Shown one piece after another: positions 18,459 through 21,406 of a stretch of 64,000 nucleotides of DNA. The stretch is from IMG/VR virus record IMGVR_UViG_3300008952_000006, positions 32,001-96,000 of that record; one strand, given 5' to 3'. Position numbers and translations under genes: made by a program. The stretch comes from a virus. How positions within the stretch are numbered: the first letter of the stretch is position 1; each line of letters starts with the position of its first letter. Under the pieces are notes generated by a model that was given only the letters and a program-made list of their open reading frames with translations, was not told the origin of the DNA and searched no databases.

Positions 18459-18782
18459 GTGAAGCATGTCATACCAAAAGAAGTCTCTCTCGGCGGCCAC
18501 TCTATCAAAGTAATCCGCAAAGAAGGTCTTCTTGAACATGCAGAAGCCTACGGTATCTTTGATGGCATTGAGTTAACAATAACAATTGACAAAAGCCTCA
18601 ATGATACCATGGCTTGGGAAACCTTCTGGCATGAAATAGTTGAGGCCATTAATTTTTTCTCAGAGGCCGATTTGGAGCATCGAACGATTCAGATCTTCGG
18701 GCTCCTTCTACATCAGACGGTAAACTCCGTACTTTCGGAACAGCAAGCAAAAAAGACTAATAAAAAGGCAGTTCCAAAGTAA
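18459..18782 (+). CDS. small zincin-like phage protein
   Basis: YG.FD...I.ID...ETFWHEIVEAI (HExxE variant of HExxH). Confidence 0.55.
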   Translation: MKHVIPKEVSLGGHSIKVIRKEGLLEHAEAYGIFDGIELTITIDKSLNDTMAWETFWHEIVEAINFFSEADLEHRTIQIFGLLLHQTVNSVLSEQQAKKTNKKAVPK

Positions 18783-18803
18783 GAGCGTAACTCCGCCGAC
18801 TGC

Positions 18804-18831
18804 GCAAAATCACCACATACTTAGGTATAAT
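18804..18831 (+). promoter_or_regulatory. putative promoter for the RNA leader/Ubl operon
   Basis: GCAAAAT-N13-GGTATAAT. Confidence 0.55.
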
Positions 18832-18894
18832 AGAATTGTATGGATCCCAAAAGATCGCGTCTATTCAGATGATCAAGTTCATAGTCACTCTGTA

Positions 18895-19269
18895 CCTCTG
18901 CTCCCTTGGTTGCCATGGCATAACCGACGAGAGCCAGCGTCACACGATACTTCCTGGTTGAAGAACTGATAAGAGGCCCTTAGGGGCGACCTGTACATCC
19001 TGCGCGTAGCCAGACCCATTCGTGGGTAAGATACGATGACTGTCGGGAAAAGACCGCTTTCGAGTATTCAACGTCAATGTGATTCCCATGATAGCGTTTT
19101 ACGCTCGGTATTTGATTTTGTTGTTTGACTAGGCTGGTCCGCCGAAGCAGGACCTTGTAATTGTTGCTCGTGTGCCGAATTAATTCGTCCGTGCACAGGC
19201 AGCATGTCAATAGCAAAAGCCTTACAAATAGGTATCCTCCCAGTGTAGTAGCTGAGCGAAGAGCAGAGG
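18895..19269 (+). ncRNA. candidate structured RNA or long 5' leader
   Basis: No credible ORF; ends pair (CCTCTGCTC 18895-18903 with GAGCAGAGG 19261-19269, extended by CTTGGTTGC/GTAGCTGAG); several internal hairpins. Confidence 0.5.
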
Positions 19270-19273
19270 ATTC

Positions 19274-19645
19274 ATGAAAGAATTTGAAATGGTGCCAGGG
19301 CAAGAAGAGTATTGGGCTCTTGTTTCCCAGTCACTAAAGAACCGTAAAAAAGTTAAAACAACCAGCTATGGTGGCTGGACTATTACTAGTTATGTTGGTT
19401 CTCGACCAACAACTGAGACTGGCACAAATATTACTCATATAGAGTATAGCGCTAGTGCCAAAACGGGTGACTTCGAAAGATCGCAGGAGCCCAATCTGTC
19501 CGATGACCCACGAACGATTCGTGTAGACTTTGATGATACATCTGTTGTTACGCTTTCCGCAAAGACAATGGAAGAACTAACAAACAGACTGAAAGAGATT
19601 TTCAATGGTTTTCATTGGGAACAGGAGAAAGAAAGACATGTCTAA
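19274..19645 (+). CDS. hypothetical protein, first gene of the Ubl operon
   Basis: GAGGA RBS; overlaps the Ubl start. Confidence 0.65.
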   Translation: MKEFEMVPGQEEYWALVSQSLKNRKKVKTTSYGGWTITSYVGSRPTTETGTNITHIEYSASAKTGDFERSQEPNLSDDPRTIRVDFDDTSVVTLSAKTMEELTNRLKEIFNGFHWEQEKERHV

Positions 19646-20204
19646 CTACTTTGAAGAACAATTAAACGAGGCTACCACCGCACGTGATAACTTTGTCGCA
19701 GCTATGGGCGCAGACTACAGCCGAAGCAACCTGGACCGGCTCCAGGCACTACAGTCACAGGTTGACGCCGCACAGGCGCAACTGCAATCTACAACCCCGT
19801 CCAATGGGTCTAACGGATCCAATGGGTCTAACGGGTCTAACGGTATCGCCGTTAACGTTCAGCCTGCAGATAGCAGCGACGAGAACGTCGAGATGTGTGT
19901 CGTAAGCTTCATCAGGCACGGCAAAACAGACCGCTGCCGTGAGGTGCGTGCAGACGCAACAATCGGTGATATTATCCACACCCTTAATCTTGAGGAGCGA
20001 GGGTCGTGGGATGTAAGCAAACTAACGTTCAAACGGCGCGTTGGCCCAGGGCAAACGGCTGATATCACTGATCCAGCAAACACCAAGTTGGGTCCTGGTA
20101 CACACGAAATCTGGGTTGGGGACAAAGTCTCTGGTGGGCGTCGGCCAAAGCATAGCTGGGGGTTTATCCTTGAGCACGTGCTTGTCAATCACTACGTTCA
20201 GTAG
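19638..20204 (+). CDS. ubiquitin-like protein: coiled coil + (SNG)5 linker + beta-grasp domain ending KVSGG + 21-aa extension
   Basis: VVSFIRHG...EVRADATIGDII...L.PG..EIWVGDKVSGG; lies directly before E2/JAB/E1 genes. Confidence 0.75.
   Translation: MSNYFEEQLNEATTARDNFVAAMGADYSRSNLDRLQALQSQVDAAQAQLQSTTPSNGSNGSNGSNGSNGIAVNVQPADSSDENVEMCVVSFIRHGKTDRCREVRADATIGDIIHTLNLEERGSWDVSKLTFKRRVGPGQTADITDPANTKLGPGTHEIWVGDKVSGGRRPKHSWGFILEHVLVNHYVQ
19800..19844 (+). repeat. 5 x 9-bp tandem repeat encoding (Ser-Asn-Gly)5
   Basis: TCYAAYGGN x5. Confidence 0.9.
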
Positions 20205-20226
20205 ACCAGACTTAAGACACGACCAT

Positions 20227-20265
20227 GGCGGGGGGCTCCTTACAGGGCCTCCCGCTATTTTTTTT
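20227..20265 (+). terminator. intrinsic terminator/attenuator between Ubl and E2
   Basis: GGCGGGGGGCTC-CTTACA-GGGCCTCCCGCT followed by A and T8. Confidence 0.75.
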
Positions 20266-20275
20266 GGAGGAAGAA

Positions 20276-21406
20276 ATGGCTGCAACCACTAACTGCTTTG
20301 TTCTAGATATTACAAAAAGCGAAGACCACATTGTTGAACAACTGCGCAGTGCGGTTGAGGCTGACTCAAAGAACGACACTGCGAGGATCCTAGAGCTTAA
20401 TGCTCGCATAAAGAAACTGGAGCCAATCTCTAAAATGAATGGCGTCAAAGTCGAAAAGCGGAGTGAAATATATGAGCGCATGCGTGCCCGTATGTCCGCA
20501 AAACATATAGAATACGAAAGAGCCCGAAACCGGGTTCGAACAGCTAGGGACAAGCACTGGGCAAGAATCACTAAGCAAGCTGAATGCGATGCCAGCATAG
20601 ACAGCCTGAAAACGGAAATATCCCGCATAAAACGAAGACTCGAGCATGCGGCAACTCTGTATGAAGGAGACGCCTTCGAAAGGCGAGCGTTGATGTTGAA
20701 ATTCGTTGCAGACCGCGTGGACACTAGCGTGCCAATTACGGTGCAAACCGTCAATGAAAACGAGCTAACAGTCAAATGGAAGACCAGCGACATCTATATA
20801 AAAGATGGTTTCGGTGGAACTCTCCCATTTAACTTTGGAAGCTTCCAGGTTCACATAACGTACAAAACCAGTTCCGAGCGGGGTAATCGTGTAGATGTAT
20901 ACTGTTACGACGCAGCTGATAACGATAAGAGGGCGGACTACTCACACCCGCACCTAAATGAACATGGGCATGCATGTCTCGGAAATCTAGCACCAATGCT
21001 TCTTAAGTTCCTAGGAGAGAAGGATATCGTCGGTGTTATAGAAAAGGTTACGGAGTTCCTTCAACACTACAATAGAGATAACCCGTATATAAAATTAGAG
21101 AACTGGTGCGAGAATAGGTGGGATAACGCCATTTGTGAGTCTGGTCGGCACATCCTAGCGGATTGCACCTGCCCAAGATGTGCTGGTTGTCGCCAAATTT
21201 TTGAAACCCCAGATATTGAAATAAGCGCCTGCGGGCACTGTCCTAGTTGCTGCATGGTCAGCCATATACACGTACCCACAATGACGGGTGTAAACGGTAC
21301 ACACTGCATCAATAGAGCAGAATACCGGCACGTTGAGTGCAACGAAACAAGCCCAGCGGGCTGTACGTATAAGCCAATTGGCGAGCCAACAAATGAAGGA
21401 GCATAG
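20276..21406 (+). CDS. prokaryotic E2/UBC-like conjugating enzyme with N-terminal coiled coil and C-terminal Cys/His-rich domain
   Basis: YSHPHLNEHGHACLGN (HPH...C active-site motif); FLQHYNRDNPY; GGAGG RBS. Confidence 0.75.
   Translation: MAATTNCFVLDITKSEDHIVEQLRSAVEADSKNDTARILELNARIKKLEPISKMNGVKVEKRSEIYERMRARMSAKHIEYERARNRVRTARDKHWARITKQAECDASIDSLKTEISRIKRRLEHAATLYEGDAFERRALMLKFVADRVDTSVPITVQTVNENELTVKWKTSDIYIKDGFGGTLPFNFGSFQVHITYKTSSERGNRVDVYCYDAADNDKRADYSHPHLNEHGHACLGNLAPMLLKFLGEKDIVGVIEKVTEFLQHYNRDNPYIKLENWCENRWDNAICESGRHILADCTCPRCAGCRQIFETPDIEISACGHCPSCCMVSHIHVPTMTGVNGTHCINRAEYRHVECNETSPAGCTYKPIGEPTNEGA

Follow-up and report, generated by a model that had tools for sequence, protein, structure and literature searches.

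What occupies the 491 nucleotides (nt) between the stop codon at 18782 and the ATG at 19274 in an otherwise gene-dense phage genome? The window analysed here is a 64,000-nt stretch (bases 32001-96000) of IMG/VR record IMGVR_UViG_3300008952_000006, the 173,034-bp genome of an uncultured phage with direct terminal repeats. By a rough count based on open reading frames (ORFs), ~94% of this genome lies under ORFs, and region 18783-19273 is one of its largest stretches without a long ORF. The region stands ahead of a short operon that includes a ubiquitin-like (Ubl) gene. A preliminary description, made from the letters of the window, had proposed an unrecognised non-coding RNA or a translational switch here, with a closing stem over the ribosome-binding site (RBS) of the first gene. 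In the analysis below, a structured RNA under selection is found, with high confidence, to exist at this place. It is best read as an RNA of ~375 nt (window ~18838-19212, + strand) that forms a new family of leaders, new relative to Rfam 15; the catalogue of predicted IMG/VR candidates (PMC10690425) was outside the comparison. On the sequence pattern, the RNA may well be a cis-acting leader, a sensor or regulator by which the expression of downstream genes is set (probability roughly 0.5).

Conservation and covariation across relatives

Homologous loci were gathered through flanking-protein searches and motif scans. Ten lineages were obtained: that of the window (identical copies L025-L030), L021, L005 (= L006, L007), L012, and L043-L048 (L054 = L046). 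The window, L021, L005 and L012 are termed group 1. Most of the ten lie on marine-metagenome contigs of about 150-184 kb, and the nine further lineages are of marine phages about 175-185 kb in size. All nine further lineages carried a homologous stretch of 330-520 nt, with no conserved ORF, behind the same promoter motif. The core of the window matched L005 at 93% identity over 59 nt, with flanking genes there at 67-76%, and L021 at 90% over 275 nt, where the adjacent 123-amino-acid (aa) protein was only 68% identical and the mean identity of the DNA stretch that includes the RNA core and downstream genes was 77%. The core is therefore under stronger conservation than its neighbouring genes.

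A covariance model made with the group-1 sequences alone detected L047 at E = 1.9e-5 and gave a single copy in the window's own genome, in which a self-similarity search also returned no second copy of the element. Motif scans of viral and metagenome collections returned the same lineages only, plus chance matches in coding DNA. The element was not found in motif scans of 185,579 prokaryote genomes, which gave no host clue. No viral loci came from scans for peptide patterns of the 123-aa and 393-aa proteins, and those for the 107-aa protein gave non-syntenic loci only. As judged from these sequence searches, the family is narrowly distributed.

The region had been described as one without a credible ORF, and this was upheld. 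Between lineages, tblastx gave similarity in all six frames with frame switching between segments, substitutions showed no 3-base periodicity, and the strand and frame of the longest open frames varied from lineage to lineage. The minus-strand ORF at 18980-19303, which had been named as a possible translated product, had no PHROG match, and no frame was conserved that would indicate translation of the region.

The formal covariation test was made on a curated set of 19 pairs in four helices across the four group-1 sequences, and its statistics are modest. Pairing was kept in 97.3% of cells, vs. 31-50% with partners slid by 1-3 columns. Five pairs were changed on both sides, and the observed covariation score was reached in 0 of 500 shuffles. 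The same group-1 helices were recovered independently by RNAalifold. Across the ten lineages, the loops of two hairpins (B and C, see below) are kept and their stems vary via G-C, C-G, A-U, U-A and G-U pairs. The ten-lineage pair tables for these hairpins were made by a script anchored on the loops, because MAFFT failed to put the two stems in common columns; the group-1 covariance model was too narrow for aligning the distant lineages. Of 63 predicted pairs, 18 had changed on both sides between L045 and L046, and six of these 18 belong to a single 11-bp hairpin. The other strand would have A-C mismatches in place of the G-U pairs, and the RNA is thus read from the + strand; this agrees with the orientation of the promoter.

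The same results bear on the possibility that the element works as DNA, as an origin of replication, an operator array or a packaging site. Such an element would suit a gap of this rank in so densely covered a genome, as well as palindromic motifs (CCUAGG in relatives, CGAATTAATTCG in the window). It sits poorly with compensatory changes that keep the pairing of one strand, G-U pairs included, and with the conserved promoter at the 5' edge, which points the same way; repeated sites of operator type were not found, nor was a further copy in the genome. An unrecognised small protein gene would have to be reconciled with the lack of a conserved frame. Taken together, these two explanations are very improbable.

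Folding energy was unremarkable. The preliminary description had named better-than-shuffled folding as a mark of the RNA, and here it failed: minimum free energies gave z = -0.95 (18832-19290) and z = -0.11 (core, 19000-19210), no better than shuffles. Folding energy is given as a poor discriminator of structured RNA in the abstract of PMC8250186, and because of this the unremarkable energies leave the structured-RNA claim standing. When the whole window was searched with Rfam 15 (4,227 covariance models), nothing was returned at gathering score. At E <= 10, region 18600-19500 gave one small nucleolar RNA match only (13 bits vs. a threshold of 100), and at E <= 1 eight relatives gave nothing over the element save an insignificant 19.7-bit small RNA match in L045. 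The Infernal/Rfam check thus fits an unrecognised RNA. Likenesses to RNase P, tmRNA, hammerhead, boxA/boxB, CsrA-sponge and tetraloop-receptor motifs were also considered and set aside, as none had a model match or consistent motifs. The proposal of an unrecognised non-coding RNA is supported by ten-lineage conservation, covariation, no conserved ORF and no Rfam family. The evidence for the RNA is the comparison across relatives, and not the closing stem or the fold, because only conservation and covariation exceed chance.

Anatomy of the RNA

The conserved core runs in the order 5' X motif, hairpin A, UGAC, hairpin B, middle hairpin, CUAGG, hairpin C, hairpin D. The features of the locus are as follows, with the basis of each in brackets.

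18804-18831, + strand: promoter, with GCAAAAT at 18804-18810, a 13-nt spacer and GGTATAAT at 18824-18831, then TTG at 18836-18838 (motif common to ten lineages)
18838-18948, + strand: variable 5' extension, which holds the 5' arm (18895-18913) of the proposed closing stem (72-76% identity over part vs. L021; unalignable with other lineages)
18949-18971, + strand: conserved 5' block with the X motif CCUG-GUUG (18953-18960) (22 of 23 nt identical to L021)
19004-19036, + strand: hairpin A, outer stem 19004-19008/19032-19036, inner stem 19014-19018/19023-19027, UUCG loop (covariation, group 1)
19037-19040, + strand: UGAC motif, nearly invariant (UGAC in 9 of 10 lineages, CGAC in L043)
19042-19057, + strand: hairpin B, stem CGG/CCG, loop GAAAAGA (ten-lineage pair table)
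19058-19128, + strand: middle domain, a long irregular hairpin (helices read by eye from alignments)
19129-19133, + strand: CUAGG motif (UAGG invariant in 10 of 10; preceding base C in eight, U in L044, A in L043)
19136-19154, + strand: hairpin C, stem GGUCC/GGACC, loop GCCGAAGCA, of GCCGAAAC type (ten-lineage pair table)
19165-19205, + strand: hairpin D, the 3' hairpin, long and imperfectly paired, with CGAAUUAAUUCG at the tip (position conserved, sequence not)
19228-19273, + strand: tail outside the ancestral RNA, derived from the 3' end of a deleted SLT gene and followed by the gene 19274 RBS (alignment to L005 and L012)
19274-19645, 19605-20204 and 20225-20258, + strand: 123-aa gene, Ubl gene and terminator, the remainder of the transcription unit (ORF list, terminator search)

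Equivalents of the X motif in relatives include UCCUAG-GUCG, UUCUUA-GUCG, CUCUAG-GUCGG and others. The motif is able to pair with both UAGG (19130-19133) and UGAC (19037-19040) in eight of the ten lineages, the exceptions being L012 and L021; a two-sequence fold of L045/L046 retains a GUYA:UGAC helix. From this pattern, X motif, UAGG and UGAC would tentatively close a multi-helix junction. The junction stays tentative, and is not counted as shown, because its partners are nearly invariant and the covariation is weak.

In group 1, four pairs of hairpin A (three outer, one inner) are changed on both sides; read by eye, L012 has CCUC-UUCG-GAGG in place of CCCA-UUCG-UGGG. At its position each distant lineage has its own hairpin, immediately 5' of UGAC. 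For hairpin B, the ten lineages share an invariant closing G-C pair; the second pair is G-C, C-G or A-U, the third C-G, U-A or U-G, and the loop GAAAGA, GAAAAGA or GAAGAGA. An alternative register, GUC/GAC, was rejected, as it fails in 6 of 10 lineages. A boxA-like CGCUCU(A/U)A follows hairpin B in L005 and L012 only.

The middle domain pairs CAAC (19069-19072) with GUUG (19120-19123) and GUCAA (19073-19077) with UUGAU (19112-19116), and also holds a conserved UGUGAUUCCCA (19079-19089) and an apical hairpin (19094-19104), in which a C-G pair is replaced by U-A in L021. By eye, GUCAA/UUGAU becomes UUUCAG/CUGAGA in L005, and AAGUA/UGCUU of L005 corresponds to AAGCA/UGCUU in L012. L043 lacks the domain, which reaches up to ~135 nt in L044 and is built differently in L045/L046 (the 11-bp hairpin).

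In hairpin C the loop core GCYRAARC is conserved over stems as different as GGUCC/GGACC, GGCCC/GGGCC, GCCUU/AAGGY, GCCC/GGGU and GGCCGU/ACG(U)GCC. At the place of hairpin D, a strong hairpin of unrelated sequence is present in 9 of 10 lineages and missing in L044; by eye, GUGUGC/GUGCAC is replaced by UUCGCAC/GUGCGGA in L005 and CGCAUAG/CUAUGCG in L012.

All five internal hairpins listed in the preliminary description are present, and three of them carry compensatory changes: CCCA-UUCG-UGGG, GGUCC...GGACC and GCGUUUUACGC, the last of which becomes GUGUUUUACAC in L021 and UGGUUUCACCA in L005. The other two fared less well. GCCCTTAGGGGC is unconserved, and no compensatory change was seen in CGAATTAATTCG, which is unchanged in L021 and was not found in L005 or L012. 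The purine-rich loops and invariant single-stranded motifs of the core look like sites of tertiary contact, or of contact with a ligand or protein.

The closing stem and a lost SLT gene

A translational switch had been placed in the long stem 18895-18913/19252-19269, which would hide or expose the Shine-Dalgarno (SD) sequence of gene 19274. Its letters are as described: CCTCTGCTC (18895-18903) and GAGCAGAGG (19261-19269) are exact reverse complements, and nine more pairs follow in CTTGGTTGC/GTAGCTGAG, with four G-U. The stem dominates the predicted ensemble in the window, with pair probabilities of 0.98-1.00 on the SD bases. In a post-hoc test, an exact complement of the SD-covering 9-mer occurred in only 3 of 2000 shuffled upstream sequences, and L021 keeps a 5'-3' helix there, whose outer part differs in sequence. 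Against these points stands the frequency of such repeats, as an exact inverted repeat of at least 9 nt was present in 64 of 300 dinucleotide shuffles of the region (21%).

The arrangement of genes in relatives tells further against the switch. In 8 of 10 lineages the RNA is separated from the homologue of gene 19274 by an SLT transglycosylase gene (PF01464) whose product bears a signal peptide, and thus another gene with another RBS follows the RNA. The SLT gene is lacking at this place in the window and L021, and a homologue of SLT was not found anywhere in the window's 173-kb genome. Window 19228-19273 aligns with the last ~35 nt of SLT and the spacer/RBS of the 123-aa gene (L005:4826-4906, L012:2297-2377), and in L005 and L012 the counterpart of the 3' arm (19252-19269) is situated ~640 nt downstream of the RNA. 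By these alignments the 3' arm is a relic of the SLT deletion together with an old ribosome site, outside the ancestral RNA, and for this reason the long-range stem is peculiar to this phage.

The nearest relative that shares the gene order is L021, whose two outer arms no longer match those of the window; the 5'-3' helix of L021, UUCUUG/CAAGAA stacked on UGCGGUUGC/GUAGCUGAG, ends just upstream of the SD and leaves it uncovered. The predicted SD partner is different in every lineage, and z-scores of the 5'-3' duplex across lineages range from -2.8 to +1.2, mostly unremarkable. The same SD is competed for by a local hairpin, in the window AUCCUC (19234-19239) with GAGGAU (19266-19271). A local CCUC(U)/SD hairpin with ~30 nt spacing is present in four of four group-1 lineages (L021 UCCUC/GAGGA, L005 CCUCU/AGAGG, L012 CCUCUU/AAGAGG). 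As read from the aligned sequences, the conserved occlusion of the RBS is this local hairpin (19234-19239/19266-19271), which is older than the SLT deletion and belongs to the old junction of the SLT and 123-aa genes, not to the large RNA.

As a working mechanism over the first RBS, the closing stem is therefore not conserved, and a switch of this kind is unlikely. The sequence comparison marks it as a lineage-specific accident of gene loss, in which the long-range, SD-burying stem would have arisen in this phage after SLT was lost. The case carries a lesson: a striking RBS-covering stem can be a by-product of gene deletion, and the real signal lay in modest hairpins seen only by comparison.

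The leader in its operon and among known RNAs

The promoter-like motif reported at 18804-18831 is present, and the pattern GCAAA-N15-GGTATAAK-N4-5-YTG stands ahead of the element in 10 of 10 lineages. GGTATAAK has 15 occurrences in the 173-kb genome, several with an upstream A-rich (CAAAA-type) box. YTG follows it 4-5 nt on in most genome copies (e.g. window 10899, 14302, 18824, 22644 and 24044) and in all of the relatives' RNA promoters. Judged from the motif, transcription would start at ~18837-18839. No GGTATAAK promoter was found between 18831 and 22644 in the window, none was seen between the RNA and the next gene in the relatives read, and the window has no terminator after hairpin D. 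The RNA would therefore be a co-transcribed 5' leader of the operon mRNA. It is situated in the 5' untranslated region, 60-100 nt ahead of the first gene and always on the strand of the operon, with the same layout in the ten lineages.

The unit that it heads is short. The 123-aa and Ubl genes are followed, directly 3' of the latter, by a very strong intrinsic terminator (20225-20258; 14-bp stem, 9 G-C pairs, run of 8 T). The terminator overlaps the listed ATG of ORF 20225-21406, and this ORF therefore probably begins further downstream. Enzymes of the cluster lie beyond the terminator, including an E1-like ThiF protein (PF00899); the E2/JAB/E1 genes past it would then rely on read-through. 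For the 123-aa protein (19274-19645), a confident fold was predicted (predicted local distance difference test score, pLDDT, 83.5) of a helix, five strands and a helix. It is conserved in 12 lineages, adjoining the RNA or the SLT gene, and had no Pfam family, no PHROG family and no PDB structural match at E <= 0.001. The predicted fold resembles nothing solved and therefore gives no hint of RNA binding.

The phage genome also encodes a terminase, ribonucleotide reductase, SNF2 helicase and AAA ATPase. No match was obtained by blastn against the phage GenBank collection and no close cultured relative was found; for the terminase, cultured relatives are only ~28% identical. No tRNA was found in the window. 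L046 has a tRNA gene (L046:189-262; Rfam tRNA, 65.6 bits) ~1.9 kb upstream of its RNA.

The neighbours of the RNA vary among lineages, with the 107-aa gene, a SET-domain gene or others upstream and SLT or the 123-aa gene downstream. Two lineages (L005:3303-3740, L012:836-1267) have the SET-domain gene (143-145 aa; PF00856, E = 1.6e-6) at a site flanked by the 107-aa gene homologue and the RNA promoter; the window lacks it. Three independent metagenome contigs (L027, L029 and L030) all start at window 18787, 5 nt past the stop of gene 18459-18782. This shared start is probably an assembly-graph branch at the boundary of a mosaic module, since the genes upstream of the RNA differ among relatives. 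Two more distant loci (L049:2413-2500, L050:2381-2500) have an operon of SLT/123-aa type behind a GTTATAAG promoter, with a short single-hairpin leader (followed by a U-run in L049) and no large RNA.

Several of these observations would suit the main rival reading, a stand-alone or processed RNA that is stable and acts in trans. It would end at hairpin D or be cut after it, serve, for example, as protein partner, scaffold or decoy, and leave downstream expression to read-through. The module keeps its own promoter as both neighbours change, its left edge coincides with the break of three independent contigs, the operon of L049 and L050 lacks it, and it is larger than most leaders, with more domains. 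In L043 and L045 hairpin D is terminator-like and a U-run follows. The other eight lineages have no U-run there, and the window no terminator. A trans-acting RNA is also at odds with the constant strand and short distance to the first gene, with no GGTATAAK-type promoter seen between, and with the lack of any other context in its own genome, in the 185,579 prokaryote genomes or in the viral and metagenome scans. Such an RNA is possible, and on this evidence doubtful.

In the preferred reading, a leader acting in cis, transcription from the phage's own recurrent promoter (18804-18831) would yield a structured ~375-nt leader at the head of a short unit, here the 123-aa gene, the Ubl gene and the terminator, and in most relatives one that begins with SLT. 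The leader would then regulate in cis in response to a ligand or protein, or, alternatively, modify RNA polymerase to pass the internal terminator. The strongest form of the idea, a new class of large ligand- or protein-sensing RNA (riboswitch-like or a processive antiterminator) that switches on a ubiquitin-like conjugation operon in marine phages, for example in answer to a signal derived from the host or its defences or by letting polymerase past the post-Ubl terminator, is speculative and rather unlikely.

A number of points weigh against regulation in cis. The function itself, as well as transcription and processing, is predicted from sequence. Single-sequence folding energy is no better than shuffled. 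No conserved expression platform of alternative pairings was found, with SD partners that differ per lineage and weak 5'-3' complementarity. The gene downstream of the RNA differs between lineages (SLT or the 123-aa gene). The operon does not need the RNA, since in the more distant L049 and L050 a short leader that lacks it precedes the same operon. The terminator-like hairpin D of L043 and L045 would fit a discrete RNA, and the junction model is built on nearly invariant sequences, fails in L012 and L021 and draws on ten lineages only.

Large conserved multi-domain RNAs of unassigned function are rare, and earlier ones opened new biochemistry, namely riboswitch classes, ribozymes and RNA-only assemblies. 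The present one is tied to a phage ubiquitin-like conjugation cluster, which is unusual and little understood. If the leader does sense something, it would reveal when and why the phage deploys the cluster.

Three groups of known systems were compared. Like the Rfam families GOLLD, ROOL, HEARO, OLE and raiA, the element is several hundred nt long and multi-domain, has conserved purine-rich loops and invariant junction motifs beside variable peripheral hairpins, is associated with phages and was detected by comparative analysis alone. It is smaller than GOLLD and ROOL and differs from the large ornate RNAs as a group in that it has no Rfam 15 match, is fixed as the leader of one operon and is present in about ten phage lineages. 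Riboswitches and other cis-regulatory leaders, phage-borne ones included, share its place on the same strand between promoter and first gene, and its order of a conserved, covarying core and then, close to the RBS, a 3' hairpin of lower conservation. The element is about twice the size of most riboswitches. In contrast to them, no known aptamer fold was recognised in it, and no conserved terminator/antiterminator or sequestor/antisequestor pair was found. In a 2023 survey, 8,495 candidate structured RNAs are reported as predicted from IMG/VR, with cis-regulatory candidates among them (PMC10690425).

The third group comprises HK022 put, EAR and lambda nut boxB. The element has no Rfam match to put or EAR, no N-like protein was identified, and the loop of hairpin B has 6-7 nt and is not a GNRA-like pentaloop as in boxB. 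The put and EAR elements are also far shorter than this RNA. Its short G-C-closed stem and GAAA-rich loop nevertheless make hairpin B reminiscent of boxB, which is taken as a lead only. With these antiterminators the element shares a promoter-proximal place at the head of an operon, and, as for put and EAR, a strong intrinsic terminator (20225-20258) lies inside that operon and is followed by co-oriented genes that have no GGTATAAK before 22644.

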